DNA from: a virus
Virus record (IMG/VR): IMGVR_UViG_3300020469_003886
Coordinates: 1 to 64,000 of that record
DNA: 64,000 bases
Direction: 5' to 3' (one strand)
In this document: one piece after another, positions 7,729 to 33,536 of the stretch
Layout of the letters: every line of letters begins with the position of its first letter
Numbering within the stretch: position 1 is the first letter of the stretch
The notes under the pieces: model-generated
Seen by the model: only the letters and a program-made list of their open reading frames with translations
Told to the model about the DNA's origin: nothing
Databases searched by the model: none
Made by a program: the position numbers and the translations under genes

Positions 7729-7878
7729 TTATTTATTGTAGTTTATTGGATTCAACATTTTATCCCAATGTGGTCCAACTGCTTCCCAATATTCACGTCC
7801 TGGATTGTGATATATCAAACTAGCAAATACTAAGAATAATACTGACAAGACAACTGTTAATGATACAAGATCTTTCAT
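7729..7878 (-). CDS. 49-aa single-TM protein (not in ORF track)
   Basis: MKDLVSLTVVLSVLFLVFASLIYHNPGREYWEAVGPHWDKMLNPINYNK; GAGAGG SD. Confidence 0.6.
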   Translation of the reverse strand: MKDLVSLTVVLSVLFLVFASLIYHNPGREYWEAVGPHWDKMLNPINYNK

Positions 7879-7923
7879 TTCTTTGCCTCTCTTAATTTTT
7901 AAAATTGCTCTTAATTGTATTTA

Positions 7924-10499: not shown

Positions 10500-10504
10500 A
10501 ATAA

Positions 10505-11215
10505 TTAGTCACTCTGAGTAATATCTACATCGTGTTCGTCACCGCTAAAGTCTGCGTCTACCACTGCATCATTAGTACCACTTTGTGTAACGTTGTAAGT
10601 TGAACCACCACCTGTGATATCTAAATTCACTGTGTGTCCGTTACTGTCACCGTTACCGTCCATTGTTATGACAACTGCGTTACCTTCATCGTTATCAGTT
10701 GAATTAGTTGATAAAGATGATGCGTTGTTCATTACTAATGTTACTGCCGCTGATGTACCATCAACGTCTGTTGTGATCACGTTATGGTCACCTGTTACCG
10801 TAAAGTTTGCTACCATGTTATCGGCTGTTGCTGTTTCACCAACATAAACTGTATATGCGTTGTCGTCACCTGTTGTCGTAATATTAAGTGTAACGTCATC
10901 ACATTTACCTGCTGATGCTGTTGAACATTTTAGGTCTACAGTGTTTGAGTTACCTGTAAACGTCCATGTACCTGTGTAGTTTGCTCCTTTGATAACTGCA
11001 TCAATTACGTTTGTGTTACCTGTTTGTGTGATTGCGAAAGTCATATCATCACCTGCCAAGGTCACATCAGTTGTGCCGTCACCAAATTGGTTATTGGTTC
11101 CATCTTGTGTGATATCTAAATCTAGTGTATCACCAATTTGATCTATATAGATATCATTAGCCAATGCTGGTAAACTAAACATCACTAAAAATAATGTTAT
11201 AATCCACGTTTTCAT
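10505..11215 (-). CDS. curlin-like (CsgA/CsgB-type) repeat protein
   Basis: Signal peptide; repeats such as NDIYIDQIGDTLDLDITQDGTNN, ITQTGNTN, VTQSGTND. Confidence 0.75.
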   Translation of the reverse strand: MKTWIITLFLVMFSLPALANDIYIDQIGDTLDLDITQDGTNNQFGDGTTDVTLAGDDMTFAITQTGNTNVIDAVIKGANYTGTWTFTGNSNTVDLKCSTASAGKCDDVTLNITTTGDDNAYTVYVGETATADNMVANFTVTGDHNVITTDVDGTSAAVTLVMNNASSLSTNSTDNDEGNAVVITMDGNGDSNGHTVNLDITGGGSTYNVTQSGTNDAVVDADFSGDEHDVDITQSD

Positions 11216-12039
11216 TTGCTTCCCTCTCCGTTATGGTGCATTGTGTGAGGAGTATATGTAACTTTGTATGTCCATAATCCCTTGTCTGCACCTTGCTCTA
11301 CTACTTCAACTATGCACTGCTCAATTGCGGCTCTCACTGCATAATTGACTGGCTCATTAAATGCTGAACCAGATTCTATTTCAATTAACTTTGTACCAAG
11401 GTCTAAAAATTTAAACACATCAGCACCAGTTGAATAACTTGCTATGTCTTTTTGTGTTGCAACGGAAAGGAGAACTTCTCCGGAGCTCACTGAAACAATA
11501 CGCATTGCCACTGTTACTGTGTCAACACGATATTGAGTTTTGCCACCAATACCTAAATATCTAGCGCCGGCGCCTCCTGTGACTACATTTGAATCATAGC
11601 CAACAACTGCGCCTTCAACAATCAATCCGGCAAACAACAAAGGTTTTAACTTTTTGTCTTTTTCGCCATCGTATTGTTCTCTAGTTGATCTTATCAATTG
11701 TCTTTCTTTGACCAAGTTGTCAAGACCACCACGTTCTACAACTTGGAACCAAGTACCATTGCCTACTTCTTGTAATGCTTGTATAACCCATACTTCAGCA
11801 CCTTGTGTAACTGCCGAACTCAATTGGCTGAAGTTTGTATTTGGTTTACGTTGACCAGTCTTATCACCAAAATTATAAACTGCAATTGTGATCCTAGGAC
11901 CATCTAATTCTGGTATCTTTTGAAAAAGTTTTATTAATGGTGCTTCTGCATTTACAGGAAGTTTGTATCCTGTCATACCAGCATGTCCGGCACATCCTGC
12001 CAAGGCTATCAATAATAATAAAGCAAATATCTGTCTCAT
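11212..12039 (-). CDS. csgG: curli secretion channel CsgG family lipoprotein
   Basis: Start MRQIF, lipobox LAGC, AVYNFGDKTGQRKP, SSAVTQGA, WFQVVERGGLDNLVKERQLIR. Confidence 0.92.
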   Translation of the reverse strand: MRQIFALLLLIALAGCAGHAGMTGYKLPVNAEAPLIKLFQKIPELDGPRITIAVYNFGDKTGQRKPNTNFSQLSSAVTQGAEVWVIQALQEVGNGTWFQVVERGGLDNLVKERQLIRSTREQYDGEKDKKLKPLLFAGLIVEGAVVGYDSNVVTGGAGARYLGIGGKTQYRVDTVTVAMRIVSVSSGEVLLSVATQKDIASYSTGADVFKFLDLGTKLIEIESGSAFNEPVNYAVRAAIEQCIVEVVEQGADKGLWTYKVTYTPHTMHHNGEGSK

Positions 12040-12040
12040 G

Positions 12041-12499
12041 TTAAAATCCAAAATCCCCAACTGGTACCGTAAGTGTTGTAACAGTACCATCTGCTTCAGT
12101 AATTCTAATTGATATTGTTCCTAAGTCTGTGTCTCTTTCCCAAAAGATTGTAGCACCTTCAATTTCTGCTGTGCCTGTTGATGCACCATCAGAAGCGAAC
12201 ATATTATCTACCAATTGTTTAGATAGATTAGCATATATTCTTGATTCAACGTTTGCTATGAATTTGTTTATTACTTCGTTCTTTTCATCACGTTCAGCAT
12301 CTCTAAGTTTTCTTTCTTCATTTTTGCGTATTTCTTCTTTACGCTGAAATTGAAGTTGTTCAGTTGCTAGGTAATGATTGGATTGCCCGATACCTGAAAA
12401 GGATGGGTTTGAAAATTCTTGGACTAATTCGCTGGCCTGAATAGGACTTGTGAAAAGTGCGAACGCCAGAACGGTAGTGTATAATGCTTTTATTTTCAT
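12041..12499 (-). CDS. csgF: curli assembly protein CsgF family
   Basis: Signal peptide then ASELVQEFSNPSFSG; lies upstream of csgG. Confidence 0.85.
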   Translation of the reverse strand: MKIKALYTTVLAFALFTSPIQASELVQEFSNPSFSGIGQSNHYLATEQLQFQRKEEIRKNEERKLRDAERDEKNEVINKFIANVESRIYANLSKQLVDNMFASDGASTGTAEIEGATIFWERDTDLGTISIRITEADGTVTTLTVPVGDFGF

Positions 12500-19712: not shown

Positions 19713-20816
19713 TTAAAAATTTTGATGAGCAAATTTTAGATCTGGCCTTGACTCTAATGATTGTCCACATTTCTGGGCACATCTATGCAGTTTTGGATTA
19801 TTTTCGTCTTGCAATGTTTGGCCAAAACTATCCACAAGATTTTTTCCATACCATTCATTTTTTAATATTTGTTGTAATGAATGTGTGTTTACGTTGATAA
19901 ATTCTCTGCCATATTTTTTATATGTTTTAAAAATAAAGTCATTTGCTTCAGATCTTTTTGTCATATAAACACGTTGATACGTATAACAACAAGGAAATAT
20001 GTCTCCATTGGTAGCAAAGAACACTGCATTTTTTAAATTAGACCATTCGCAGTTTACTTTTTTGGCATTAAATTTTTCTAACATATTTTTCTTTTGTGTT
20101 TGCCAATCATGTGTTATCGAATGAGAACTGTTGTATTCTGTATCTTTAAATTTAGAAGGAACTTGAAACGTTTTTAAACTGTCATTAGGTTCTAATTCTC
20201 TACCACCGTTATTAGGTGAAACTGTAAAAGTAGCAAATTTCATTTTCTTAGCCAAATCTCTTGCTTGATCAATTTGATGTTTATTGTGTTCAAATTTAAT
20301 CATTTTCCAATGTGCTTTTCCGCCAGCATCAATAAATGCTTGAGCATTTTCAATAATTTTATCCCACTTGGTCATTCTTCTGTATAGATGATTCGTATCT
20401 TCTAGTCCATCAATTGAAAAAGCAATATAATTTTCTTCGTTAAAACTCATTAACTTACCAAGATCTTTCCAATAGTTAGGTGTTCTTAGACTTGCATTTG
20501 TGTTAGCACTAACAATAATTTTAGGATTCTTTTTTGCAATCCATTCAACTGTATCTAAAAAAATGCTACTTGCTAATGGATCACCAAACACAGGTGTGTG
20601 ATCAATTCTATAAACTTTTGACAAAGACCATTTATCAAACATTTTTTCCCATGTTTCAAACTTCATGTCTGCTTCAAAAGGCATATAAGGATTTAAGTAT
20701 TGTCCTTTTGCTCGATTTTCATCAACTCTAGCACACATAGGACACATGGCATTACATTTAGTTGTAAGTTCTACCTGTATTTCTATTGGCTTGTCTAAAT
20801 TAAGATATGATGTCAT
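19713..20816 (-). CDS. radical SAM protein with C-terminal SPASM/twitch domain
   Basis: CNAMCPMC; SIDG; GDIFPCC...CAQKCG. Confidence 0.9.
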   Translation of the reverse strand: MTSYLNLDKPIEIQVELTTKCNAMCPMCARVDENRAKGQYLNPYMPFEADMKFETWEKMFDKWSLSKVYRIDHTPVFGDPLASSIFLDTVEWIAKKNPKIIVSANTNASLRTPNYWKDLGKLMSFNEENYIAFSIDGLEDTNHLYRRMTKWDKIIENAQAFIDAGGKAHWKMIKFEHNKHQIDQARDLAKKMKFATFTVSPNNGGRELEPNDSLKTFQVPSKFKDTEYNSSHSITHDWQTQKKNMLEKFNAKKVNCEWSNLKNAVFFATNGDIFPCCYTYQRVYMTKRSEANDFIFKTYKKYGREFINVNTHSLQQILKNEWYGKNLVDSFGQTLQDENNPKLHRCAQKCGQSLESRPDLKFAHQNF

Positions 20817-22329
20817 CTGCTTGGTTGACCCAAGTTTTAAATTTTTTTTGTGCTGTTATTGTGTGTTCTTCTCTCAAACCTTTTCTTACCATGCCCATTA
20901 CACTTGGTTTGGTAATAATTTTTGCTAGTTTCATTACAACTTCAATTACATCATCTTTGTAACTGATTGGTAAATCTTTGCCTTTTGCAAGTGTACGCAT
21001 AGCAGTTTTAAATCTTGCTACTCTGTTCTTTGGTACCATACCTTCTCTTGCCAACATATCAAGTTTTGATAAATCTGTTTGCGAAAGTGATTCTGCCAAT
21101 GCTCTTTGCAACATGGTTGTTTTGCTAGGTTGTGTTAGTGCTCTTGCTACCTTTTTCATTATTGGTGTAATAACTTGTTGTAAATTTGGATTGACTGGTT
21201 TTCCTGATGCCATTGTTTTAATAGCTCTCAATGCCGGCGATGGTTCAACCTCTGGAGCAATCTTTTTCAATAAACTCATTTGTACTTTTAGGTCATTACT
21301 TTTTGCGTCAGTTTGATCATTTGAACCAGGTTGAGTGTTAGGTGTAGTATTCTGTTGTGTATCACCAGCCGCTCCTGATTTGTCTTTGGCATATTGTGTT
21401 TTTACTGCTTGTAAAACTTTATTTTGATCTAACTCGCCTGGTTGCTGAACTGCTCCTGCAACATCAACTTTATAATTTTTTTCAAACCAATTTATAACTT
21501 GTTCATCATTTGGATCAGATGCTTTAAACTGTTGAAACTTTTGCCAAACTTTATTTGCAACATCGCCAATTGCTTTTTCACCTTTGGCTTGCTGTCCCAT
21601 ATCTCCTAAACCTGGCACAACACCAGCAACACGTTTTGCTGTGTTCATTGCTTTCTTAACTGCACCAAAAGGTGCTTCTTCTACATCAGTTGATTCACCA
21701 TAACCTTTTTTAAATGCTTGACCAACTGTCATAGTGCTGTTGCTACCAGTATTGTCTGATTTATCAGTATTGTTTGATTGTTTTTTTTGTAATTTAGGTT
21801 TTTCAATTTTGTTACTAATATTTTTTAATTTTGATGGTGTGTTTGGCTTAACTGTTTTTTTCTGTAAAGGATTAACCTGTTTAAGTAAATTTAAATCGTC
21901 AATTCTATCTACAATCCATTCATCTGGCATACCTGTTCTTGCCTTCATAACACCATATGGCATTTCGCCTGAATCCATGTAGTAACCAAATAATTCATCA
22001 TACACTTTGGATCCATATTCAATATCATCTGTGCTTTTAATATTGTATTTGGTTAATATTGCTTTGATTGTGTTATATTCAGTTGATTCATTTAAATCTT
22101 TTTTCATTTGTTCTTTTGATTTGCTGTATTTCTTTTGAAACTCTTGATCTGATAATGTTTTAATATCAGCATCTATGTCTGACATTCTGCCTTCATTTTT
22201 GTTAGGCTTACCATGTTTGTTGTGTTGAGCCCATGCAATGGCATATGGTGCACCTGGATCATCAAACTTCTTTTTTAGTTTTTTAACTTGTTTTTCTCTT
22301 CCTGGTGGTGCTATTTCGCTAAATTTCAT
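20800..22329 (-). CDS. modular putative internal head (poly)protein
   Basis: MKFSE start; unrelated modules separated by NE/VEE/LAE sites; TAAATA upstream. Confidence 0.65.
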   Translation of the reverse strand: MKFSEIAPPGREKQVKKLKKKFDDPGAPYAIAWAQHNKHGKPNKNEGRMSDIDADIKTLSDQEFQKKYSKSKEQMKKDLNESTEYNTIKAILTKYNIKSTDDIEYGSKVYDELFGYYMDSGEMPYGVMKARTGMPDEWIVDRIDDLNLLKQVNPLQKKTVKPNTPSKLKNISNKIEKPKLQKKQSNNTDKSDNTGSNSTMTVGQAFKKGYGESTDVEEAPFGAVKKAMNTAKRVAGVVPGLGDMGQQAKGEKAIGDVANKVWQKFQQFKASDPNDEQVINWFEKNYKVDVAGAVQQPGELDQNKVLQAVKTQYAKDKSGAAGDTQQNTTPNTQPGSNDQTDAKSNDLKVQMSLLKKIAPEVEPSPALRAIKTMASGKPVNPNLQQVITPIMKKVARALTQPSKTTMLQRALAESLSQTDLSKLDMLAREGMVPKNRVARFKTAMRTLAKGKDLPISYKDDVIEVVMKLAKIITKPSVMGMVRKGLREEHTITAQKKFKTWVNQADDIIS

Positions 22330-22349
22330 TGTGTACTCCTACTTTATAT

Positions 22350-22601
22350 TTATCGCTTTAACATAGGATATATATCTTTTACTTTGGTTCTATATGCTAG
22401 TGTATCTGCACTATACCCCATTTGTGCTATGTCTTTGCGTTTTTTACGTGCATTTTTAAAAATTTTACCAAATGGATCAACTGCTTTGATTGCCTGTGCG
22501 TGTGTAGTACCAGGTGTCACTGGAAAAGCAAGTGTGGCTATATTACCACTTGCTGTTGACCCTGCTGTTGCATCTTCTGTGATGATATCTATAATACGCA
22601 T
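22350..22601 (-). CDS. putative internal head protein
   Basis: MRIIDIITE N-terminus; TATAAATA 5 nt upstream. Confidence 0.65.
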   Translation of the reverse strand: MRIIDIITEDATAGSTASGNIATLAFPVTPGTTHAQAIKAVDPFGKIFKNARKKRKDIAQMGYSADTLAYRTKVKDIYPMLKR

Positions 22602-22606
22602 AACAT

Positions 22607-22614
22607 TATTTATA
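22607..22614 (-). promoter_or_regulatory. T4-type late promoter
   Basis: Exact TATAAATA. Confidence 0.65.
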
Positions 22615-23869
22615 GTTTTATTGAATCTAAGAACTCTATCAGTTGTGGATCTAAATGATTGCTGTATGACTGTTTTCTGTTTATATCAAAATTAACTATT
22701 TCTGACTTCATTTTTTTCCATATTTTCATTTTATCTGTGTCATCTATTTGAATTGCATTTTTTAGATATTGCTTAACTTCATTTAAACTTGAATCATGCA
22801 AGGTGTTTAGTTTATCTAATTGTGATTTGATGATATAATTTGGTAGCCATTTTACTGCTAAAGGACCTTCGTACGGATGAACAAAATCAAAAGAATAGTA
22901 TATGGTTTTACCTACTATTCCTTTATAAAATTCTTTATAGTAGTTAATATAATCATATACGTTGTGCAGATTATAAACTGATAAAACAAATGCGTGAGAT
23001 ATATCTTCACAATTTACATCTGAATTAATAAAGTTTGTTATGCTTTTTTGTAATTTATTGAATGGCATTGGATATCTAATGTATTCATATGTTTGATTAA
23101 TTCCATCGATACTAAACACTGGAGAAAAAACTCTAAACTTTTTAATTTTTTCTAAAACTTCATTTGTAAATTTTGTTGCATTAGTAATTACTTGCAGATC
23201 AATATGATGTGCATTGTCTGTTTCTATTGCATAATCTAAAAATTCTTTAAATCTTTTGCTGACAAAAACTTCTCCTCCTGTGAATTTGATGTGTTCACAA
23301 GTGTCTAAATTATCTAATAGATATTTCCATTCATATTCATCAGCAGTGTTTAATTTATTAGTATCTGTAAATTGATCCCACCCTGTTGGTAATTCTACAT
23401 CTCTATCTTTAAACATTCTAAAATCTTTTCGTAACTTATCGCTAATCCATGGAGCACACATTCTACATCTTAAATTACATTCATTACTTACTTGTATATC
23501 ATATGATGTTACTTGAAGATTACTAATTGATTTTGCGTGTATCTCTCCATTGGGTGAATAACGCAAACGATCACTTGATCCTGTTTCTGCTTCTCTTTGC
23601 CAACATGATTTACATGCAGGATTTTTTATATTGTTCAATGCATCACTTCTTAACTTTTTAAAAGTTGAATGATCAAAAATATTTTTAATTTTATTGCCTG
23701 GAGAGCTTTCTATTTCATGTTTCCATGATTCCCAACCCATAGGGTCATTTTGTGTGTTTTGAGAAACACAACAAGGAGCCGGTACACTAATTTTACCATT
23801 TTGCCATTCTTTAATTGCAAGTCTATGAAATGGATACCAACAAAATGTATTATCCTTAGCGGGCTTCAT
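22610..23869 (-). CDS. radical SAM protein with N-terminal SPASM/twitch domain
   Basis: FCWYPF...PCC...CKSC, then CNLRCRMC and FTGGE. Confidence 0.9.
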   Translation of the reverse strand: MKPAKDNTFCWYPFHRLAIKEWQNGKISVPAPCCVSQNTQNDPMGWESWKHEIESSPGNKIKNIFDHSTFKKLRSDALNNIKNPACKSCWQREAETGSSDRLRYSPNGEIHAKSISNLQVTSYDIQVSNECNLRCRMCAPWISDKLRKDFRMFKDRDVELPTGWDQFTDTNKLNTADEYEWKYLLDNLDTCEHIKFTGGEVFVSKRFKEFLDYAIETDNAHHIDLQVITNATKFTNEVLEKIKKFRVFSPVFSIDGINQTYEYIRYPMPFNKLQKSITNFINSDVNCEDISHAFVLSVYNLHNVYDYINYYKEFYKGIVGKTIYYSFDFVHPYEGPLAVKWLPNYIIKSQLDKLNTLHDSSLNEVKQYLKNAIQIDDTDKMKIWKKMKSEIVNFDINRKQSYSNHLDPQLIEFLDSIKL

Positions 23870-23882
23870 TAGAAGTTATCCT

Positions 23883-24683
23883 TTATTTCTTTTTTCCTGA
23901 TTTCATATTAGCACACCAGTGATACATTTTTGCACGTTCACCTGATGCTTTTTTAGCCTTTGCTCTTAAACTTGTGACTGATCCTTTGCAACTGGCGCCT
24001 GAACGTTTAACACGTCCTGGTCTGCTTTTGCCTTTTTTCTTGCCATCAGCAAAATTTTCGTTTGTTTCTGTTCCTGTATAGTATGGTGTTCTTTTCATCC
24101 ATACTTCGTATTCTCGTTTATACCATTCACCATCATCGTCTTCTGCATTGTGTACCAATTCAATTAGGTTGGTAAAATTAAGTATAGCATCTCCTGGGTT
24201 AAAATTTTTTTCTACTAATTCAAAGTCATCTTTTTTAAAACCCATATTTCCTTGCATCATACTCTGAACAAAGTTTTTTGCACCTTTTATATTATAAGCA
24301 AATGGAATGAATACGTCATCAGTTGGAGCACTGCTTTTATCTTTTTTCTCGTATCTGTATAGTTTTGTTATTCCAGAATAATCAGTAAAGGACGGATGAT
24401 CGTTTTTTATTTTAATGATATCGCTTATAGTATTGTCCAATATAGCATTAGATTCATAATAATCTCTTACAGCATCTATAATATCATACCAGCCATCTTC
24501 GCCATACTTCTTAATCATAGCCTTCTGCCATTGTGCTAGGGATTGAGTCTTTTCAGTTATACTTTCTTTTTTCTTTTTTTTGCCGGCACAGTGGGCTTTT
24601 TGTGAGAAACCTTTTGGGTTACTACAATTAATTGAGCTTTTATATTTTTTGCTCCACTTTTCTGTTAGTTCTATGTATCTCAT
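23883..24683 (-). CDS. modular protein: 2-Cys basic peptide + ART-like domain + 2-Cys basic peptide
   Basis: MRYIELTE|KWS...SITE|...LYR...EYEV...TNE|NFADG. Confidence 0.65.
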   Translation of the reverse strand: MRYIELTEKWSKKYKSSINCSNPKGFSQKAHCAGKKKKKESITEKTQSLAQWQKAMIKKYGEDGWYDIIDAVRDYYESNAILDNTISDIIKIKNDHPSFTDYSGITKLYRYEKKDKSSAPTDDVFIPFAYNIKGAKNFVQSMMQGNMGFKKDDFELVEKNFNPGDAILNFTNLIELVHNAEDDDGEWYKREYEVWMKRTPYYTGTETNENFADGKKKGKSRPGRVKRSGASCKGSVTSLRAKAKKASGERAKMYHWCANMKSGKKK

Positions 24684-25084
24684 TTTTTATACTTGTTGCT
24701 AACATTCTTTGCCTTGCCGCTTCTATTTGCGTTTGTGTCTTTTCTACGTTTTCTATTAACTGCTTGAGCTATTGCTTTCTTGCCACCTTTGGATCTCAAT
24801 GATGATGCTCTGGCTTTTGATAGACATTTTGGTTTGCCTTCACCTTTTTTACGATCACCACACTTACCAATTCTTTCGCCTTTGGTGTTGTAACGATCCC
24901 AGCCACCGCCGCCGGCGCCACCTTTTTTGCCTTTACCAAACCAAGCACGTAGATCTTCTTCAACATCTTGCTGTGATTCAACTTTACGACAATCAGGTAC
25001 ACGTTTGCCAAACATCATTTTAGTGCCGTGCTTTTTGTAGCCCTTCCAACAACGTGTGCCTTCTAATAACTCAATTAATCTCAT
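24680..25084 (-). CDS. modular protein with two 2-Cys basic peptides
   Basis: MRLIELLE|GTRCWKGY...VEE|DLRAWF. Confidence 0.7.
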   Translation of the reverse strand: MRLIELLEGTRCWKGYKKHGTKMMFGKRVPDCRKVESQQDVEEDLRAWFGKGKKGGAGGGGWDRYNTKGERIGKCGDRKKGEGKPKCLSKARASSLRSKGGKKAIAQAVNRKRRKDTNANRSGKAKNVSNKYKK

Positions 25085-25425
25085 TACTTCTTACTCTTGT
25101 TGCCCCAGTTCTTTGCACCAACTTTTCTGCATCTTACCAATGCACCGCTGGCATAGGCTGAGGGCCATACTTTGTATCTTGATTTTACTTTGTGATAACA
25201 AGCATCTTGTTTTTCAGCCAATATGTCAAACTCTTCTTCAGTCATCATTTGTTGTGATTCAACAAATACTGATACCATATCGTCGCCGTTGTTGAGTCCA
25301 CCTTTTTTAACTTTTACATTTGCTTTGCCGTATTCTTTTTCGGCTTCTGCTGGAGACATACTAGTTTGTTTCCAACGCTTTTCTGCTTCTGTAATTGACT
25401 TACTTTTAAGTTCATCTATTCTCAT
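25084..25425 (-). CDS. modular protein ending in a 2-Cys basic peptide
   Basis: MRIDEL...SITE|AEK...ILAE|KQDACYHKVK. Confidence 0.7.
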   Translation of the reverse strand: MRIDELKSKSITEAEKRWKQTSMSPAEAEKEYGKANVKVKKGGLNNGDDMVSVFVESQQMMTEEEFDILAEKQDACYHKVKSRYKVWPSAYASGALVRCRKVGAKNWGNKSKK

Positions 25426-26066
25426 TTGCCCATCCTTATATTAATTTGATTCCAATCAATGATTGTCATCATTGCTTTAATATATTTACCCTTGGCATCT
25501 TTTGCAGGAATATAATCTGTAAAAGAGTGTTCCCACATGTCAATTGGCATTAATATATCTGTCTTGTATGATTGATTTGGTGTTGTTTTAAGTTCACCTG
25601 ACTTACTCAAGTATACCCAACCTGAACCTTGTATGGTCATTGCTGTCTTAATCATTTCATCAACAAATGAACTCATGTCTCCAAATCTGTGTTCAATTAA
25701 TTCTTTAATGGCACCATCTGGTTTTGAACCATCTGCTTTTTGTAATTGTTCCCAAAATAAATTGTGTAGCATAGCACCACCATAATTAAAATCTGGATCA
25801 CCTTCTTTGTTGTTGTATCTAGTTACATATCCGTTTGATAATATATTGTAGTGATATTCTACATTGTCTTTAGATAGCACTGGTGCTAAATCTTTTGTTT
25901 CATAAGCCAACTTTTTTAATTCTAGTTTTTGTGGTTTTGACTCGTTCATAGATAGTTTCATCCTTTCGTGATGTCTTCGTGCAAACTCTTTGCGAGGATT
26001 TGGCATTTGTATAAAATGCGGATTCTCGCCAATGCCTGCCAATTGTTTTAATCTTGCTATATCCAC
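25422..26066 (-). CDS. sod: Mn/Fe superoxide dismutase with N-terminal extension (probable GTG start)
   Basis: YHY, NYGGAMLHNLFW, QGSGW, PNQ, DMWEH; N-terminal DIARLKQLAGI...SMNE. Confidence 0.88.
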   Translation of the reverse strand: MDIARLKQLAGIGENPHFIQMPNPRKEFARRHHERMKLSMNESKPQKLELKKLAYETKDLAPVLSKDNVEYHYNILSNGYVTRYNNKEGDPDFNYGGAMLHNLFWEQLQKADGSKPDGAIKELIEHRFGDMSSFVDEMIKTAMTIQGSGWVYLSKSGELKTTPNQSYKTDILMPIDMWEHSFTDYIPAKDAKGKYIKAMMTIIDWNQINIRMGK

Positions 26067-26067
26067 T

Positions 26068-29000
26068 TTACACACTTCTCCAATGGAAACTTGCTGTTTG
26101 TGGATCATTAGTAATTGATAATGAAGCCGCTTGTACGTGTCTTGTACCTATTTGATTTACAAACTCTTCAGGTGTTCCTGTAATACTAAATGATCGTTTA
26201 CCTGTGTCAACTGTCATAATAGTTTCTACACCGTCTGATAATTTATAACTTACAAGTTGTACATACGTAATTAAATTTCTAAATCTATTAAAATTAATTG
26301 GTCCACCTTCTGTGCCTGGCTGTATTGCATTATCAATCATTTTTTTAATATTTGTTTGTGCTTGTTTGTAAACTTCATCATAGTTTGTAACTAATGCTTG
26401 TAATACACCAACAACATATTGATTTAGTTTTTCATTATCAAATGTTGCTAATTTTTTATTTAGAGTTGCTAGATATTTTTCACTAATAGTGTATGATTTC
26501 TTTTCTAAGTCATCAACAGTTATTCCAAGATCAGCATATAATCTTTTCATGTTAGCCAATGCACCTTTACCATCTTGTATTGCTGTTCCGTTTAATCTAG
26601 CACCACTGCCTTTGGCTTGTGATCCTGACTTAACTTCTACCCCTAGTGTTTTTCCATCTGGCATAGTAACTGCAAGGTCACCTTTTACTCCACCAGTACC
26701 TGTTGATACCGGGGATCCAATTGCACTTAATAAAATTTCTGCTGGGCCTAATGCTCCGCCTGTACCTGCTTCACCTTTATAATTAATTAAATCATTAACT
26801 ACAATGTCATAAACGTCTTTGTGCTTTTTAACAAACTGATCAATTGTACCTTGTTTTGCTTTAACCATTGCTGGCATATCAACAACATTACCAGCTACAC
26901 AATCTTTAACAAAATTTATAACTTGTTGTTCAGTAAGTGCATTTTTAAAATAAACATAATTGAAAAATAAAGAAAAAAGTCCTTGTGTTAATTTTTCTTT
27001 AGCCATTTCTGCATTTGCTTGAACTTTCTTTTGTTTTGAATCGTATTTTCCGCCTGGATCAGGATCTTGATAATTTGCTACTTTTCTTGCTAGTAATTCA
27101 ATTTCTGAATTTAGCCTTTTAATATTATTTGTTGACTTTGCTTTTTCTTCTTCTTGACCTTTACCATACTGTTCTTTACCGTATGCTTTTTTCTCTTTAT
27201 CAACATTAACTTGAAGTTCTTTCAAAGTAATTATTAATTGATTTTTTAACTGTCCATCTGGTAGTGTTTCAATTTGATCTGCAATTGTTTTAAAATTTTG
27301 TAAAGTTGCACTAACCACTGCTGGTGAAATTGATTGTCCTGCAACTGCTGTGTCCATTTCAGGTTCTTCTGCTACTTGTTCTTGCCCTGTTGCCTTAGAC
27401 AGCAGTGCTTTAAGTTTTTGAATTCCTTGTTGTACTATTCCAACTGTTTCTGGATTTGCTTTTACTTTATTTTCTATATCATTAACAGTTCTTTCAATAT
27501 TTTGATTTTGCGGTGATGGTGCCTCAAGTATACCGTGCTTGATCAACAGTTGTTCTAACTGTTCTTTAACAGGCAACATGTAGTGATTTTTTCTACCTTT
27601 GGTCAAGTATGAAAGTGTACGCCAAGTTTTAAACCAATCTTCTGTGCCTGGTTTTGATGTTGCTTTCATTTTTTGCCACATTTTTGTACCAGGATGTGAT
27701 AGCAAACTCATTTCGCCGCCGTCATTTTGATATGGTACTTCTGATGCTACTTCACGTGTTGCTTTAAGCATTTTGCCAATACCTTTTTTAACTTCTTGTA
27801 AATCTATCTGTTGTTGTAGTGTTAAGTCTTTGTTTGAACCATTGATTCTAATCAATGCTTCTTGCATACGTTTTACACGTCTTAAATTCTTTGGTGCCAT
27901 AATAGGTGGTACTCCGTCTTTGGTTACTTTGAATCCAAATTTGGCTGACTGTTTTTTGATTGCATCAACTCCAACATCGTGTGTGGTGTTTATGCCCTTG
28001 ACAACTCTGCCACCATGTTCTGTTAAATTATTTTTTTCTTTGAAGTCTTTTATACTGTTTTGTACTTTTGACAATGGATCTTCATCTGCTTGATACTTAA
28101 CACCATAGCCTCCACGTTGTAACCAACCTTGAATATTTTTGCCTCTGTCATCAATCAATATATTTTGTGTGCCATCTGCCTGCACAGCATATGAATCTTT
28201 TCTACCTACCACAATAATTTCATCTGGTTGTATTCCAAGTTCTCTTTTGATCCATTTGATCTTTTGTACTTTTGAATTTTCGTGATCGCCTCTCAATGGA
28301 GATGATAATATTTTGTAACTACCAAATTCTTTCACAACCATTTGTATCAATTTGTCGGTAGTTGGAAACTTTGGTAATCTATCAAAAAAATCTGTGCCAA
28401 TCATTTTATCTAGTGTTGGGTCTGTTTTAGCAGGTGGAATATCTTTGTAATTTCCTGTAGTTACTCCTGCAAGTTTGGCATACTCGGCAAAAAAGTTTGC
28501 AAGTACTCCATCCATATCAACATAAGCAATTGGTTTGCCTTGTGGTGCTTCGTCCATATCAAATGATTTACTTTTGTGTTTTGCATAACCTCTTTTGTCT
28601 AGTGCTTTTTTATCTTTGTGTGATCCAGCCGCTCCACTTTTTCTAATGGCTTCCATATCTTTCCAATTTGGATCACGTGATTTGATATCTGGCTTCTTTG
28701 GCATTTTTGGTTTGTTTGCCATTTCTGATGTGTTATTTGATTTTTCTAAACTTTTTCTAATTATTTCAATTCTTTTTCCTGCTTCGCCTGTTCTTGATTG
28801 GATTTCATCATCTGTTTTGCCTTTTTTAATTAGTTTGATGATAAGCTCTTTTGTCATTGTTGCATAATTTTCTTGTACTTGTTCTTGAATTCCCATACCT
28901 TGTCTTACTTTTGTGTATAATTGTTGTTTTAATTTTTCGCCCCCGTCAATGGTTTGTGAAAATGTTTTAAAGTCACCTGCTTTTGCAAGTGCTCTTGCCT

Positions 29001-29448
29001 TAGATGCTGACACCCCAGATACATCAGTAGCATCTGCATCTCGTTCACCTGAGCTTACTATTGAAAATTTTTCAATGCCAAAATCTTTTAGGTATGGTCT
29101 CATTTGTGATTCAAAGTCTTGTTTTCGATCTGAACCAACCACCATAATAACTTCATTGTATTGTTTGCCTAATTCTTCAAGAGCTTCCCACGGTGTGCGA
29201 ATAGATGGGTCATCCATGATATTCATGTGTGGGAACATTGCTCTTAAAAATGTAATTTTATCTTTGTATTGTAATGGATTCTTTTTTGGGTCATTAGTTT
29301 TACCCGTGAATACATAATGGTCAGCACCACTGGCGGCGTTTTTCACTACGTCCATCAATCGTGCGTGTCCTTTGGTTGGCGGATTGAATCTGCCAAATGT
29401 AAACACTGCCTTTTCTGCGTTTGGTTCTAATAACTCATTTAAAATCAT
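26068..29448 (-). CDS. polyprotein-like: cytidylyltransferase-like + HAD 5'-nucleotidase-like + PD-(D/E)xK-like domains
   Basis: MILNELLE start; FGRFNPPTKGH, VVGSDR, VSASKAR; VDMDGVL...LIDD; GPAE...KGDL...VEVKS. Confidence 0.8.
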   Translation of the reverse strand: MILNELLEPNAEKAVFTFGRFNPPTKGHARLMDVVKNAASGADHYVFTGKTNDPKKNPLQYKDKITFLRAMFPHMNIMDDPSIRTPWEALEELGKQYNEVIMVVGSDRKQDFESQMRPYLKDFGIEKFSIVSSGERDADATDVSGVSASKARALAKAGDFKTFSQTIDGGEKLKQQLYTKVRQGMGIQEQVQENYATMTKELIIKLIKKGKTDDEIQSRTGEAGKRIEIIRKSLEKSNNTSEMANKPKMPKKPDIKSRDPNWKDMEAIRKSGAAGSHKDKKALDKRGYAKHKSKSFDMDEAPQGKPIAYVDMDGVLANFFAEYAKLAGVTTGNYKDIPPAKTDPTLDKMIGTDFFDRLPKFPTTDKLIQMVVKEFGSYKILSSPLRGDHENSKVQKIKWIKRELGIQPDEIIVVGRKDSYAVQADGTQNILIDDRGKNIQGWLQRGGYGVKYQADEDPLSKVQNSIKDFKEKNNLTEHGGRVVKGINTTHDVGVDAIKKQSAKFGFKVTKDGVPPIMAPKNLRRVKRMQEALIRINGSNKDLTLQQQIDLQEVKKGIGKMLKATREVASEVPYQNDGGEMSLLSHPGTKMWQKMKATSKPGTEDWFKTWRTLSYLTKGRKNHYMLPVKEQLEQLLIKHGILEAPSPQNQNIERTVNDIENKVKANPETVGIVQQGIQKLKALLSKATGQEQVAEEPEMDTAVAGQSISPAVVSATLQNFKTIADQIETLPDGQLKNQLIITLKELQVNVDKEKKAYGKEQYGKGQEEEKAKSTNNIKRLNSEIELLARKVANYQDPDPGGKYDSKQKKVQANAEMAKEKLTQGLFSLFFNYVYFKNALTEQQVINFVKDCVAGNVVDMPAMVKAKQGTIDQFVKKHKDVYDIVVNDLINYKGEAGTGGALGPAEILLSAIGSPVSTGTGGVKGDLAVTMPDGKTLGVEVKSGSQAKGSGARLNGTAIQDGKGALANMKRLYADLGITVDDLEKKSYTISEKYLATLNKKLATFDNEKLNQYVVGVLQALVTNYDEVYKQAQTNIKKMIDNAIQPGTEGGPINFNRFRNLITYVQLVSYKLSDGVETIMTVDTGKRSFSITGTPEEFVNQIGTRHVQAASLSITNDPQTASFHWRSV

Positions 29449-29449
29449 A

Positions 29450-29596
29450 TTATCTTCTTTTACCTTGTCCAGCATATGGTTTGTAAGAACGTCTTTTACT
29501 TTTGTTCATCGATGACATTTTCAATCTGCCGCGACCAATTGTTGTTCTTTTTGCTACATGCTCGATACTAGAGGATTGCCCCATCATCTTTGCCAT
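29450..29596 (-). CDS. 48-aa basic protein (not in ORF track)
   Basis: MAKMMGQSSSIEHVAKRTTIGRGRLKMSSMNKSKRRSYKPYAGQGKRR; AGGAG SD. Confidence 0.75.
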   Translation of the reverse strand: MAKMMGQSSSIEHVAKRTTIGRGRLKMSSMNKSKRRSYKPYAGQGKRR

Positions 29597-29597
29597 T

Positions 29598-29969
29598 TTA
29601 TGCTCCTATTTTTAAATCTACTTCGCTGTACTCATTATCGTCCATCTTTTGTAGTTCCATGTCAGCAATTGATTTGGCCGCTAAATTCCTCACAAGTCCT
29701 GGAAACTTAATTCTTGCCATCGGGCCTGCTTCTTTTTTGGCTACGTTATCAATTAAGTAACGCCATAATTTAATTGCTAGATTGTGATCGTAAACACCTT
29801 TGGCACGTTTACGCATAAGATTTTTGATGATTGGCATATACTGACGTCTATAAAGGTCACCATCATTGGTTGCTAACAGTTCTAATTCATCAGCAAGATC
29901 TTGAACTTTATCAGGGTCAGTAGAACCGTCCTGTACTTCTAGTAAATAATCTTTAAATTGTTTAGTCAT
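29598..29969 (-). CDS. putative internal head protein
   Basis: MTKQFKDYLLE resembles the T4 capsid-targeting sequence MKTYQEFIAE. Confidence 0.7.
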   Translation of the reverse strand: MTKQFKDYLLEVQDGSTDPDKVQDLADELELLATNDGDLYRRQYMPIIKNLMRKRAKGVYDHNLAIKLWRYLIDNVAKKEAGPMARIKFPGLVRNLAAKSIADMELQKMDDNEYSEVDLKIGA

Positions 29970-30035
29970 AACTAATTCCTAAATGTAATGTATATACATC
30001 TATATTTATGCTGTCAACAATTAAATGATATCTTA

Positions 30036-30629
30036 TTAACTCCAGGGTTTTTTATCAAGATCAACTGTGATGCCCTGTGCTTTTAACCCTTTTATTACAT
30101 TTTGTACACCAATTACCTGTCTAAATGTGTCATGTAGTGCATGGTGCTTGTCTGCTTGTGGCATTTGTGCTTGGATTCCAAAGCCAAACAGTGTTCTAGT
30201 ATCTCTTATGTCGTAATAACTCCATGGAACTCCAACTTCCATCTTACGCATAATATTGTCAACAATCATTAGATCAAAGCATGATCCGTGGCTCCAAGGA
30301 CGTTTTACACCAAATGAAAACTTACGCAACTCTTTCATTGCGTCTTGTATTGTGATCCTATCACCGTTGTCACCAAATGCTTCATCCTGTGCTTCTTTTG
30401 ATTGTGTTGACCACCAATTGATTGTTTCTTCGTTGACTTTACATCCAAGTGCTGTACATGAATCCAAATCAATTCTTCTGTACATCACTTGATGTGGTGG
30501 AAGATCTGAAACTTTAATTTTGCTGTAATCTGCATGTGGATCAAATCTAATTGCGGCCATAGTAACAATTGCCGCATCGTTAGATGTAGCCAATGTTTCT
30601 AAATCAATCATTAAATCTGTGTTTGCCAT
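30036..30629 (-). CDS. DEDD 3'-5' exonuclease
   Basis: MIDLETL, WSHGSCFD, RDTRT, HHALHD. Confidence 0.85.
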   Translation of the reverse strand: MANTDLMIDLETLATSNDAAIVTMAAIRFDPHADYSKIKVSDLPPHQVMYRRIDLDSCTALGCKVNEETINWWSTQSKEAQDEAFGDNGDRITIQDAMKELRKFSFGVKRPWSHGSCFDLMIVDNIMRKMEVGVPWSYYDIRDTRTLFGFGIQAQMPQADKHHALHDTFRQVIGVQNVIKGLKAQGITVDLDKKPWS

Positions 30630-30635
30630 AGTATT

Positions 30636-30663
30636 AATATAGCACAATTTTCCAGAATGTCAA
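30636..30663 (-). promoter_or_regulatory. sigma70-type promoter, probably leaderless
   Basis: TTGACA-N16-(TGC)TATATT-N6-ATG. Confidence 0.75.
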
Positions 30664-30666
30664 GAG

Positions 30667-31278
30667 CTATTTTACGAAAGCACCAATTCTTCCATGCACG
30701 TCAGGATAATCAATATATCTATATCCTTTTGGAGGATCAATTGACTGTCCTTCCCAAACAGGAATAAATTCTACTATGTTTTGTTCAAAATCTGGATTTG
30801 GTCTAAAATGAACTTCTATAAGTTTACTACCTATAAATTCACAATTGATGTTCGGCTTATTTGCAAATTGTTCCAATACTTTTGGAAAAGGTATTTGATC
30901 ATCAGTTGCTACCCATTTATCCCATTTGGTAAATGTATCTTCGCTTTTGAATCCTTCAACACACAGCACTTGTTTGCCGTATTGATAATCAACTGACAAA
31001 TGTTTTCCTTCGAACCATTCACACCAAAAATATCCAGGATCTAAATCTATTGTGTACTGTGACAGGTACATTTTTTTTGCACCTAATCCTAAGCCCATAA
31101 CATTAACACAAGGTCGTACAATATACCATGCTGGTTCAGGAACATCTATTCCTGCTGGACCACTTTTGTATCCTAACTTTCGAGAAAGTATTAATTTATC
31201 GTAGACCCAAATTTCGTCAGCATCTGCGGTCTTCCAGTAAATGTCTTCTGGTGTGTCTTCATAAATCTTCTTGTTCAT
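30667..31278 (-). CDS. minimal ATP-grasp-like protein
   Basis: IVRP...GLGLG...CEWFEG..LSVD...NCEF...IEVHFR. Confidence 0.5.
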   Translation of the reverse strand: MNKKIYEDTPEDIYWKTADADEIWVYDKLILSRKLGYKSGPAGIDVPEPAWYIVRPCVNVMGLGLGAKKMYLSQYTIDLDPGYFWCEWFEGKHLSVDYQYGKQVLCVEGFKSEDTFTKWDKWVATDDQIPFPKVLEQFANKPNINCEFIGSKLIEVHFRPNPDFEQNIVEFIPVWEGQSIDPPKGYRYIDYPDVHGRIGAFVK

Positions 31279-31909
31279 CTTTTGTTTTGTATGACCATTC
31301 ATCTGTGTGACCTACTGACCATTTAGGTGTGTTTTCGACTGTGTAGTTCTGTGAACATACTTTAAAGTCTGGCATCTTTCTATCTGGGTGTACTAAACTT
31401 TGATCTGTAAATATTACCCTGTTGTTTGGCTGTGCCGCAAACTGACCATTTTCCATTTTAATCATGTTGAATGATTTGTGTTCCGGATCATGCTCTGAAA
31501 AATTTGTGTTCAACACATTTTGATCTCTGTGACAGTTGTCAATTGTAAAAATGTATTCGCCTTTATGCATTTTTTTATCTTTGCCAAAAAATTCACAATC
31601 GCATAACAATGGTTTTTTGATCACTGTGATATCATAATCAAAACAATCCCATATCTGTAAATGATCCAATGGCAATTGATTGTCTTTGTCGTAGTCTGTT
31701 TTCCAGACGAATGCTGATAATGGCAACTTATCAAAAGAAGCACCATAGTCTGTTAGTAGTGTTTCAAAGTATAATGCTTTGCCCATTACACTTTTTACTG
31801 ATACCCATATTCCTGGTGTAAGTTCTCCATGACCTTTTTGTAGATCATATAGATACTCTTTTTTAACGTATACTTCTTGAGGTGGAAGATTGTGGACTAG
31901 GAAGCTCAT
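31259..31909 (-). CDS. hypothetical phage protein
   Basis: Long ORF with GGAGG SD. Confidence 0.75.
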   Translation of the reverse strand: MSFLVHNLPPQEVYVKKEYLYDLQKGHGELTPGIWVSVKSVMGKALYFETLLTDYGASFDKLPLSAFVWKTDYDKDNQLPLDHLQIWDCFDYDITVIKKPLLCDCEFFGKDKKMHKGEYIFTIDNCHRDQNVLNTNFSEHDPEHKSFNMIKMENGQFAAQPNNRVIFTDQSLVHPDRKMPDFKVCSQNYTVENTPKWSVGHTDEWSYKTKDEQEDL

Positions 31910-31921
31910 CTGGTGCCTCCG

Positions 31922-33160
31922 TTACCATGCTCTACAACTCCAGTATCTTGCCTTTGTTCTTGGCCCTGGATTTGAGCAGTTATGTCTTGCACGGAAACTT
32001 TTTCTACGTGCTGGGTTTGATTTTTTGATACGCATTGTTTTTGAATCTTTGTTCTTGCCGCCGCCTTGGTGACCAAAACGTACCATTTTTACGTTTCCTG
32101 TTTTAGGATCTTTTACATAAACTTTAAATTTACCTGGCTCATCTGTGCCAGTTCTAATTGGCTTACTTAACTTAACTGTTTTGCCTTTGTACTTGGCTTC
32201 AAATGTTTGACCAAAATTTCGTTTGTTTTTATCTTTTTTAAAGTAAGGCTCTTTTGCACCTTTTGGTTTGTCGTATGTTTTAGCACCAATTTTAGAGTCT
32301 GTGTCTTTGTATATTGGTTTTGGATTTTTGCCGGGGACCATAAATCCTAATACGCCGCCTTCATCGACACCAAAACCTACAATGTCGTCGCCTAAGATCT
32401 TTGCCGCCTCTGTACAGTTGTCTTCATCAATTTCTGATACACCCATAACTTTCATAAATTCTTCGTGCATAGATTTAGTAATTGGCATCATAGCATAAAA
32501 AGGTTCTAATCCTTTTTCAGTAACAGCATCTTGACCGTACTTTGATGTAACTTTGTTGTATTCGTTAATTTCAGCGCCATCTGAAAGTATACCAGTATCA
32601 ATATAACCTTTTAGCATTCCTGCTGGTAATTCGTCTCCGTTGCTTCCTTCATAATTTTTGTATTTGTTGTACCAAGCCTCTAATGCTGATTTGTCAACTG
32701 CTTCATTAACATCTTGTTCGTTTTTATCAAAGCCTGCTTGTACCATTTCGTATTCTAAATAATCTTTTACCACTTTTAAGTAATCTGATGCTTTGGTTAG
32801 TTTTGATGCTACCCAACCTTCAATACCTTCACGTTCAGAAACTTTTTGCAACATATCATGAACTGCTTTTGCGTTTTTCATTGCATGGTACATTTGTGAT
32901 TTGCCCATGTTCACTTCATGATCTTGTTCTTGTGATTCTTGCTCTTGTGGTTCTTGTTCCATTTCGCAACCACATGCTTCTTCTAAATCTGAAATAAATT
33001 TTAGTGCTTTGTCATCTGCTAGTACAGTAACAGAGTTTTCATCAATTTTTTCGATTGTAGTTGAAATTAATGCTGTGCTTTCGCCAAACTCAAGATCAAT
33101 TGCATCACCAACTTGTGGTGTTGCTGATAGAATATCAATATATTTTCTTATATCTTGCAT
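31922..33160 (-). CDS. modular putative internal head protein ending in a basic 2-Cys domain
   Basis: MQDIRKYIDILS; LEE/VNE/VDE/TFE junctions; C-terminal ...RHNCSNPGPRTKARYWSCRAW. Confidence 0.7.
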   Translation of the reverse strand: MQDIRKYIDILSATPQVGDAIDLEFGESTALISTTIEKIDENSVTVLADDKALKFISDLEEACGCEMEQEPQEQESQEQDHEVNMGKSQMYHAMKNAKAVHDMLQKVSEREGIEGWVASKLTKASDYLKVVKDYLEYEMVQAGFDKNEQDVNEAVDKSALEAWYNKYKNYEGSNGDELPAGMLKGYIDTGILSDGAEINEYNKVTSKYGQDAVTEKGLEPFYAMMPITKSMHEEFMKVMGVSEIDEDNCTEAAKILGDDIVGFGVDEGGVLGFMVPGKNPKPIYKDTDSKIGAKTYDKPKGAKEPYFKKDKNKRNFGQTFEAKYKGKTVKLSKPIRTGTDEPGKFKVYVKDPKTGNVKMVRFGHQGGGKNKDSKTMRIKKSNPARRKSFRARHNCSNPGPRTKARYWSCRAW

Positions 33161-33164
33161 AATT

Positions 33165-33536
33165 TTATTTATCTCCTACTGCTTGTTTGTAAGCATCTAA
33201 GCCCATTTCCATAGCATCACGTTCTGAATCAGTAAAATTACCAATCACAGGAGTAGTTGATTCTACATCAAAGTCAATTGTCATTACATAATCAAGTGCA
33301 TCAAACAACAATTCTGTTTCTTCCGGTGTTAAGTCTCTAGTTGTAGGCATGTCATATGCATGACGCCCATCTTTAATGTGATAAAATACATCTGTGTTTG
33401 ATTTACCAGGCTGACTTATGGTTCTTAGAATACCTTCTGGTACAATTAGTTCAATTGTTTTATATATTATCTGCAAAACTTCATTTGAAAGTTCTTCGTC
33501 AACATATACTCTTATATGATGTTGATATGATCTCAT
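33165..33536 (-). CDS. hypothetical protein
   Basis: ORF in the co-oriented run. Confidence 0.7.
   Translation of the reverse strand: MRSYQHHIRVYVDEELSNEVLQIIYKTIELIVPEGILRTISQPGKSNTDVFYHIKDGRHAYDMPTTRDLTPEETELLFDALDYVMTIDFDVESTTPVIGNFTDSERDAMEMGLDAYKQAVGDK

Follow-up and report, generated by a model that had tools for sequence, protein, structure and literature searches.

What short, closely similar N-termini do on genes of quite different content is the question raised by a cluster of 14 minus-strand genes at positions 20800-33160 of the window, that is, of the first 64 kb of a linear IMG/VR viral contig of 92,102 bp (IMGVR_UViG_3300020469_003886). An earlier note, made from the letters alone, had quoted eight related leaders in this cluster and had read them, together with xxE sites inside the proteins, as a system for packing cargo into a phage capsid. 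All eight leaders were found at the starts of minus-strand genes. In our judgement the cluster probably codes for proteins that a T4-like phage packs into its head, in an enlarged and modular form of the T4 internal-protein system. Packaging of these proteins is likely, and their internal cleavage is somewhat less certain.

In T4, the diverse internal proteins share only a capsid targeting sequence, which is trimmed by gp21 (PMC9026906, PMC3012670). The propeptides given in the T4 record are MKTYQEFIAE↓A for IPII and IPIII, MAKINELLRE↓S for gp24, MLKEQLIAE↓A for gp22 and MNEPQLLIE↓T for gp21, and the gp23 site is FLTE↓A (the arrow marks an actual or putative cut). The leaders of the cluster are 5-13 residues long, and seven of the eight end in hydrophobic-x-Glu, like the short hydrophobic leaders of T4 IPI, IPII, IPIII and Alt; one of them, MTKQFKDYLLE, stands in the exact T4 register and matches it position by position. 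Unlike those of the T4 internal proteins, the leaders here are mostly of 8-9 residues and of the M-R-x-I-E-L-x-E type. Five of the seven matches to a generic leader regular expression lie inside the 14-gene region (hypergeometric p 1.4e-4), and four further leader-type N-termini are found beyond the window on the same contig. By itself the leader motif is statistically weak, and the case rests on the comparison of homologues.

Metagenomic homologues were found in large numbers: 4,254 for the gene of the 113-amino-acid (aa) protein (25084-25425), 5,965 for that of the 266-aa protein (23883-24683), 5,060 for that of the 1126-aa protein (26068-29448) and 450 for that of the 509-aa protein (20800-22329). 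The N-termini of the best matches are nearly all M-[KR]-x-x-[DE]-hydrophobic-x-E or a near variant, with the conserved module directly after. The motif stands before the first basic module of the 266-aa protein in 70/70 N-terminal and 37/38 internal cases, and before the nucleotidyltransferase module of the 1126-aa protein in 53/60 homologues, with 16 more homologues being leaderless; the nucleotidyltransferase of a Rak2-like jumbo phage starts directly at the fold. In the 509-aa family, 69/70 homologues begin with M-[KR]-hydrophobic-x-E followed directly by the conserved [IV]APPGREKQ. The leader is portable between unrelated domains, since it heads the nucleotidyltransferase, an NT5C nucleotidase, a superoxide dismutase (SOD), DUF6267, small basic modules and domains with no assigned function, and homologues additionally place it before ParB, PAP2 and pterin dehydratase. 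Twelve IMG/VR homologues of the SOD carry leaders ending FE↓ or VE↓ (MKIRQLFE↓, MTNDIRKYLDLFE↓) about 10-13 residues before the fold. Therefore the eighth quoted leader, MQDIRKYIDILS (gene 31922-33160), belongs to a known leader class with Ser in place of Glu, and the SOD of the window probably starts at Met50 (25961) with the leader MKLSMNE↓. As judged from these alignments, chance as the source of leaders and joints is excluded by their conservation.

The same motif recurs inside the proteins. The 266-aa protein consists of four parts: the leader MRYIELTE (24660-24683), a 36-aa basic two-Cys module (24552-24659), a 165-aa acidic central domain with no fold assigned (24057-24551) and a 57-aa basic two-Cys module beginning NFADG (23886-24056). 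The 1126-aa protein has the leader MILNELLE (29425-29448) and predicted junctions after Glu8, 300, 477 and 642, which delimit an NMNAT/cytidylyltransferase-like domain with a Lys-rich linker (28549-29424; PF01467, phrog_3041), an NT5C/HAD nucleotidase (28018-28548; PF06941, phrog_2643), a basic GRVVKGINTT module (27523-28017) and a 484-aa C-terminal domain with no fold assigned (26071-27522). Every module of this protein also stands alone behind its own leader in other proteins. The earlier note had listed ten internal sites as joints between unrelated modules. Domain boundaries in homologues coincide with six of them, SITE↓K, TNE↓NF, LTE↓HG, ILE↓AP, MDE↓AP and TFE↓AK being module starts there. 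LAE↓KQ was off by 8 residues, MNE↓SK probably closes a short leader that belongs to the SOD itself, and informative homologues were too few for VEE↓DL and VNE↓AV. The motif occurs at about 83-100% of module starts, and at 83-98% of the internal ones, against a background of 10.9%, where the background counts any hydrophobic-x-Glu within 2 residues of a random internal position in the same proteins, a looser criterion than that applied at junctions. Shuffling of modules in relatives with breakpoints at the xxE sites, which the note had expected, was also seen.

The individual joints bear this out. The central domain, joined here at SITE↓K, starts at the identical residue in other proteins, where it comes after N-terminal leaders ending ITE↓ or IAE↓. 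At TNE↓NF, the NFADG module comes directly after the leader in two proteins and follows an internal hydrophobic-x-Glu in 126/142 or 128/142 cases, depending on the count. The GRVVKGINTT module after LTE↓HG follows a leader in 16/16 N-terminal cases, and ILE↓AP is aligned with LIE↓, the last residues of the leader in a homologue of the C-terminal domain that stands alone. At MDE↓AP, 7 residues separate the Glu from the strand that opens the NT5C fold, a spacing that fits the 8-9 residues of leader-bearing homologues. The module after TFE↓AK corresponds to residue 2 onward of leaderless stand-alone proteins from a pelagiphage podovirus, a roseophage and a Nitrosopumilaceae spindle-shaped virus. 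LAE↓KQ (Glu71 of the 113-aa protein) is variable among homologues (85/119), and the invariant site is 8 residues upstream at Glu63, an [IMLV]-T-E read here as MTE↓EEF, which precedes this module (module C) in 91/91 internal and 27/28 N-terminal cases. Similarly, the KWS module has the motif at 41/42 junctions. Counted across distinct upstream contexts, the junction motif was kept in 48/48, 74/81 (NFADG) and 28/29 cases for three modules; the joints are therefore not the remnant of one inherited fusion. Breakpoints in the 266-aa family fall where these joints predict, with 63/90 second-segment starts at residues 201-212, the mode being on Glu209 itself, and 42/70 first-segment ends at 36-48 (Glu44). 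Module order is also permuted between phages: PSSM2_123 of P-SSM2, located between gp15 and gp16, has four modules in one open reading frame (ORF) in the order A-B-C-D, and the window has B-A and X-C in two genes, each with its own leader.

A protease of the appropriate type is encoded by T4-like relatives. Peptidase S77 is found in Melnitz, S-CREM2 and two module-bearing IMG/VR contigs, G014 and G018. The latter (288,815 bp) has portal, protease, scaffold and gp23-type capsid protein genes in T4 order, and roughly nine of its genes start with leaders of this style, one for a nucleotidyltransferase and one with the KWS module among them. Directly before a stretch ending in a shared RR-x-MP box, the capsid protein reads FLTE↓A in T4, LLTE↓A in S-CREM2, FLSE↓A in Melnitz and MLAE↓N in G018, which suggests that the protease specificity is conserved across the four. 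A capsid site of this kind is copied in the cluster itself. The 83-aa protein (22350-22601, minus strand) consists of the leader MRIIDIITE (22575-22601), a capsid-arm copy (approximately 22512-22574) and a basic tail of net charge +8. Its residues 6-30 align with residues 39-63 of the G018 gp23-type capsid protein (13/25 identical, E 9e-6), IITE↓DATAGST being paired with MLAE↓NATAGST across the putative cleavage site. Since the alignment spans that Glu, the leader Glu of the 83-aa protein is the positional equivalent of the capsid protein's presumed maturation site, and this is the most direct argument from sequence for cutting at a leader Glu. The 83-aa protein showed no similarity to the S-CREM2 capsid protein, the Melnitz capsid protein or S-CREM2 gp160, the G018 capsid protein being its only match.

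Comparable copies were present in cyanophages. S-CREM2 gp160 matches the capsid protein of its own phage (18/24 identical, E 2e-8), and S-SCSM1 ORF97 matches the S-CREM2 capsid protein (16/24 identical, E 4e-9). The coordinates that belong to these matches are 22512-22574 of the window, L128:9348-10526, L009:28342-29235 and L115:38122-38307. The copied arm suggests a docking role, and in small proteins generally it may act as a docking or decoy device. To our knowledge, small virion-associated proteins with a copied capsid cleavage site and N-arm have not been described before.

Virion proteomes of relatives connect the leader with particles. Mass spectrometry of CsCl-purified S-CREM2 virions detected 52 proteins (PMC10665884 Table 3). 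A leader in the strict T4 register occurs in 5/28 of the non-structural or hypothetical virion proteins, in 0/24 of the structural ones and in 5/167 of the non-virion proteins (one-sided Fisher p 0.0065), whereas a relaxed T4 regular expression showed no association with the S-CREM2 virion proteome (p 0.42). The five virion leader proteins, of the form M-[KQ]-x-[FL]-x-x-F-[LF]-x-E, are a SAM hydrolase, a kinase, gp13, gp136 (between terminase genes) and a cytidylyltransferase. Moreover, S-CREM2 gp160, which is listed in the virion, has modules A, B and C, homologous to the window genes 24680-25084 and 25084-25425. The record annotation of S-SCSM1 (PMC9602691) gives its NMNAT, with the leader MKSFLQFLKE↓, and the four surrounding genes all as virion proteins. 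ORF89-93 of S-SCSM1 (L115:31358-36836) form a five-gene block downstream of gp41 and mazG, syntenic with the leader-gene cluster of Melnitz and HTVC008M and annotated throughout as virion proteins; taken as a whole, it looks like a cargo locus. The link between the leader and cyanophage virion enzymes is derived in this analysis; among the papers available, 'capsid targeting sequence' is paired with cyanophage or Synechococcus only in one T4 review and one SPN3US paper, the S-CREM2 and S-SCSM1 papers not being searched for the leader.

From these observations we infer targeting, cleavage at each site, ejection and cargo roles in the following way. The amphipathic acidic leader of 5-13 residues (approximately M-[KR]-x-hydrophobic-[DE]-hydrophobic-x-E) would attach to the scaffolding core during prohead assembly, like the T4 capsid targeting sequence, so that the leader-bearing protein is built into the prohead. 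A gp21-type prohead protease (Peptidase S77) would then cut after the Glu of hydrophobic-x-Glu, removing the leader and, in multi-module proteins, separating the modules at the same motif. The enzymes freed in this manner would be the Fe/Mn SOD, the NMNAT-like nucleotidyltransferase, the NT5C nucleotidase and the domains with no assigned function, and the very basic two-Cys peptides (isoelectric point (pI) 9.4-11.2) would stay on the packaged DNA as counter-ions. Such a counter-ion role is plausible because T4 internal proteins contact DNA phosphates via their lysines (PMC3012670). The 83-aa protein may be docked to the shell by its copy of the capsid cleavage site and N-arm. The contents would finally leave the head with the DNA at infection. 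We give even chances to a plug-and-play loading of the capsid, by the leader, hydrophobic-x-Glu joints and, in some cargo, capsid-arm copies, throughout the T4-like phages of the sea, namely Kyanoviridae, the Melnitz and pelagimyophage relatives and what may be a jumbo clade of 350 kb.

Several points weigh against reading the cluster as processed head cargo. The generic leader regular expression matched 7/128 N-termini on the contig against 3.4 expected (p 0.06-0.11), which is weak; it is tuned to this phage and misses the S-CREM2 leaders, just as the expression that fits those leaders does not fit this phage. The 412-aa protein (31922-33160) has no leader Glu, and some putative P1' residues are unusual, including the Pro after Glu8 of the 1126-aa protein. 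The first joint of the 266-aa family is less sharp than the second, as 22/70 first-segment ends lie 10-28 residues past Glu44, and Thr-Glu at a helix start could be a structural N-cap instead of a cleavage site. No PF03420 or Peptidase S77 (gp21), portal or capsid gene is present on the 92-kb fragment, which is without the head gene module; the phage's own protease is thus postulated. Cleavage is predicted from sequence, and the authors of the S-CREM2 work allow that abundant proteins could co-purify with virions, leaving cargo versus co-purification undecided (PMC10665884).

Alternatively, the leaders and the hydrophobic-x-Glu joints could be conserved elements that mark boundaries, as recombination linkers or as helix N-caps, on proteins that stay at full length and are perhaps packaged but never processed. 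Recombination at short conserved sequences would give homologue breakpoints at the joints, as is seen; helices commonly begin with Thr-Glu and acidic residues behind it; and one putative site is followed by Pro. However, the internal joints keep just the last 3-4 residues, not the whole leader, in dozens of unrelated contexts, and retention of hydrophobic-x-Glu only points to selection on the triplet itself. The same triplet stands before the conserved N-terminal region of the capsid proteins, in the 83-aa protein it lines up with the capsid site, and one and the same N-cap plus M-[KR]-x-x prefix would not be required by all of these unrelated folds. We therefore consider this explanation rather improbable.

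We think it very unlikely that the radical SAM enzymes (19713-20816, 22610-23869) recognise their substrates by the leaders and cross-link the two-Cys modules as in ribosomally synthesized and post-translationally modified peptides, with the Glu as the site of a leader peptidase instead of the head protease. The idea draws on the radical SAM gene inside the operon and on the exactly two Cys in each small basic module, but any radical SAM gene was present in flanks of up to 10 kb at only 10/80 related loci, so that a consistent linkage of leader-bearing genes with a radical SAM maturase was rejected; none is annotated near the clusters of Melnitz, HTVC008M, S-SM1, S-CREM2 and S-SCSM1, and large enzymes without a Cys pair bear the leaders as well. 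At least seven genes of the radical SAM type lie on the contig (19713-20816, 22610-23869 and within 46179-52884 of the window, and 86132-87199 of the contig), and adjacency is thus expected by chance. The two-Cys basic modules could still be radical SAM substrates despite the weak linkage. It is scarcely credible that the leaders are N-terminal tags for degradation or regulation, for example by phage or host ClpXP, which would time protein abundance. N-termini of the type Met-basic-hydrophobic-hydrophobic do resemble one class of ClpX N-degrons, and ClpP-like and ClpX-like proteins are apparent by eye on the contig, from N-terminal sequences only. Such tags leave unexplained the conserved internal joints, the mimicry of the capsid protein and the leader-bearing homologues in virions. 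Proteins resembling ClpP, ClpX and, judged in the same way, ribosomal protein L11 seem to be encoded at 54827-55426 of the window and at 64391-65650 and 68833-69255 of the contig.

Loading of the head with cargo thus being the preferred explanation, the genes themselves can be considered for what they would deliver; all lie on the minus strand. Several of the enzyme labels given by the earlier note were borne out. The SOD gene (25422-26108; PF02777 E 1.4e-18, PF00081 E 2e-9) scores 67.2 bits with PF02777 (cut-off 20.9) and 38.2 bits with PF00081 (cut-off 27), and its translation has a DMWEH motif and two upstream His. The nucleotidyltransferase scores 30.8 bits with PF01467 (cut-off 21) and matches phrog_3041 at E 1.9e-47, with PPTKGH as its (H/T)xGH motif; it is homologous to the cyanophage virion NMNAT/cytidylyltransferase at 37-44% identity. 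The supposed HAD phosphatase was confirmed as NT5C, marginally with PF06941 (25.1 bits, cut-off 24.8) and with phrog_2643 at E 2.3e-20, its DxDx(T/V) motif being DMDGV. Two other labels found no support. The part of the 266-aa protein called ART-like (24057-24551) has no Pfam or PHROG hit, and its AlphaFold model, with a mean pLDDT of 54, is too poor for a fold search. The 484-aa domain called nuclease-like (AlphaFold pLDDT 64) gave no fold match: Foldseek against the PDB returned nothing at E <= 0.001 (the restriction enzyme in 14th place, with E 2.3, does not count as evidence), and a wide VIA-align search gave only helical-bundle look-alikes on the low-confidence N-terminal 120 residues. 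Pfam searches at E up to 1 gave nothing meaningful for the small modules and the domains with no fold.

The basic peptides proposed in the earlier note were confirmed as six small modules of net charge +4 to +24 and pI 9.4-11.2, each with two Cys. The leaders are acidic, and so is the central part of the 266-aa protein. The 134-aa protein (24680-25084, phrog_727) begins with MRLIELLE and has a CWKGY two-Cys module (24956-25060) and a 91-aa Lys/Arg/Gly-rich two-Cys module (24683-24955) of net charge +24. Its neighbour, the 113-aa protein, has the leader MRIDELKSKSITE, a 50-aa spacer module and, after MTE↓, the WPSAYASG two-Cys module (25087-25236); among isolates, 358 of the 366 phage records carrying the module of this gene are cyano-myophages. 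A VESQQ linker is shared by these two genes, as had been noted. The 412-aa protein (phrog_7595) has the leader-like MQDIRKYIDILS, two acidic parts and, after TFE↓, a 91-aa basic HVA1-like two-Cys module (31925-32197) of net charge +23. The HVA1-like module (phrog_7595; besides the window, L014:2504-2776, L015:2498-2755 and L016:2498-2749) occurs in T4-like phages, a pelagiphage podovirus, roseophages and spindle-shaped (archaeal) viruses of Nitrosopumilaceae; outside the T4-like group it is leaderless, and its distribution is unusually wide for a viral protein of about 90 aa.

The 509-aa protein, which belongs to no Pfam or PHROG family, is basic and has the leader MKFSE (22315-22329), the predicted mature part having a pI of 9.6. 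The 123-aa protein (29598-29969) is acidic, bears the MTKQFKDYLLE leader and has homologues in loci L031 and L040. Between it and the 1126-aa gene lies a very basic 48-aa ORF (29450-29596), leaderless and of uncertain membership, with a 70% identical homologue in locus L078. The start of the 1126-aa gene is most likely at 29448, MILNELLE beginning at Met10 of the longest ORF (26068-29475), because its first codon sits one base past the stop of this 48-aa ORF and because homologues start there. Five genes of the interval are leaderless, namely the 48-aa ORF, an exonuclease gene, a phrog_3577 gene, a phrog_3704 gene and the radical SAM gene (22610-23869; Pfam PF04055, E 6e-12) inside the operon, whose product is probably outside the cargo set.

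Genes of the tightly packed operon from 29969 to 22610 abut or overlap their neighbours by 1-4 nucleotides (nt). The earlier note had pointed to TAAATA upstream of several genes, and the motif is indeed present before 22329, 22601 (as TATAAATA), 29969 and 33160; it is not specific, since 32/128 genes of the contig have it within 60 nt upstream, and with a quarter of the genes so equipped it adds little. The late-promoter-like TAAATA is 17 nt upstream of the 509-aa gene (22347-22352) and 33 nt upstream of the first gene of the operon (30003-30008), both on the minus strand. TATAAATA, the T4 late-promoter consensus (22607-22614, minus strand), and the TAAATA at 33166-33171 are just 5 nt ahead of the ATG of the 83-aa gene and of the 412-aa gene, respectively. 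If these two motifs serve as promoters, the mRNAs would be leaderless or nearly so.

The contig as a whole has a GC content of about 33%, a CheckV completeness of 24% and nearly all genes on the minus strand. Its closest cultured relatives are Methylophilales phage Melnitz and Pelagibacter phage HTVC008M, both of them T4-like myophages classified in Kyanoviridae; in a megablast search, the region matched none of the phage isolates. With Melnitz it shares an adenylate cyclase gene at 68.6% aa identity across 681 aa. This gene (5331-7376) and its neighbours (window 4566-12499) are common to Melnitz (68.6%) and HTVC008M (47%) and are the strongest marker of relatedness on the contig. At the contig end, a gp41-type helicase is followed by a DUF6267 protein (PF19782, E 1.5e-97), and the local order is the same in Melnitz, HTVC008M and cyanophages. 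From the CheckV values (53 kb as 15%, 144 kb as 41%, 289 kb as 80% and 92 kb, this contig, as 24%), genome sizes of about 350-380 kb would follow for it and for most of its relatives among the IMG/VR contigs behind loci L030-L092. These contigs may represent a marine jumbo T4-like clade, yet the genomes of the closest isolates are only 141-147 kb.

Part of this picture is already known, namely the T4 cargo principle and the multi-site processing of head proteins in the T4 core and in giant phages. Like the T4 internal proteins, the proteins of the cluster are diverse, fast-evolving and often basic, and they come with a T4-like background and late-promoter-like motifs. Unlike them, the putative cargo includes recognisable metabolic enzymes, has several unrelated modules per leader with the cleavage motif as the joint, belongs to families with thousands of metagenomic members and has no sequence homology to the T4 internal proteins. 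The T4 core proteins gp22, gp67 and gp68 are cleaved by gp21 inside the prohead at many hydrophobic-x-Glu sites per precursor, which yields small internal peptides, as multi-site cutting is presumed here; their N-termini MLKEQLIAE↓ and MEGLIE↓ resemble the leaders. Those proteins are scaffold and are largely degraded and lost, whereas the pieces here look like functional products, that is, folded enzymes and conserved basic modules. In the giant phages phiKZ, 201phi2-1 and SPN3US, many non-structural proteins packaged in the head (ejection and inner-body proteins) are trimmed after Glu by a T4-related prohead protease and ejected (PMC5694885, PMC7411985, PMC10052503). These proteins belong to another lineage, and neither a short portable N-terminal targeting leader nor modular polyproteins of unrelated enzymes are known for them. 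The cleavage motif of these giant phages is small residue-x-Glu, unlike that of the cluster. New here are the marine T4-like lineage and the scale, recognisable enzymes as cargo, exchangeable modules joined by the cleavage motif, and the mimicry of the capsid arm. If the joints are cut, we know of no earlier case of a phage polyprotein that sets unrelated enzymes and peptides free within a capsid.

An NMNAT/cytidylyltransferase, a kinase and a SAM hydrolase have been reported in virions of the cyanophages S-CREM2, S-SCSM1, S-CBWM1 and S-SZBM1 (PMC10665884 and PMC9602691 for the first two). The nucleotidyltransferase and the small basic modules of the window are homologous to such virion proteins, and the papers left open whether these were packaged or contaminants. 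The leader system probably explains how enzymes are packed into the capsids of such phages, and the T4-type leader on these 'non-structural' virion enzymes offers a mechanistic answer to the question of cargo or contamination. The leader also provides a rule by which virion cargo is predicted from the genome sequence only. Such a rule would annotate many viral proteins with no assigned function, the families being very large in ocean metagenomes, and would indicate what the abundant phages of the sea bring into the cell as infection begins. Cutting at the joints would provide a compact means to change the injected payload via module swaps. Finally, if plug-and-play loading holds for the marine T4-like phages, a large share of the 'hypothetical' small basic proteins of ocean viromes, together with SOD, NMNAT-like transferases and nucleotidases, would be injected virion cargo.

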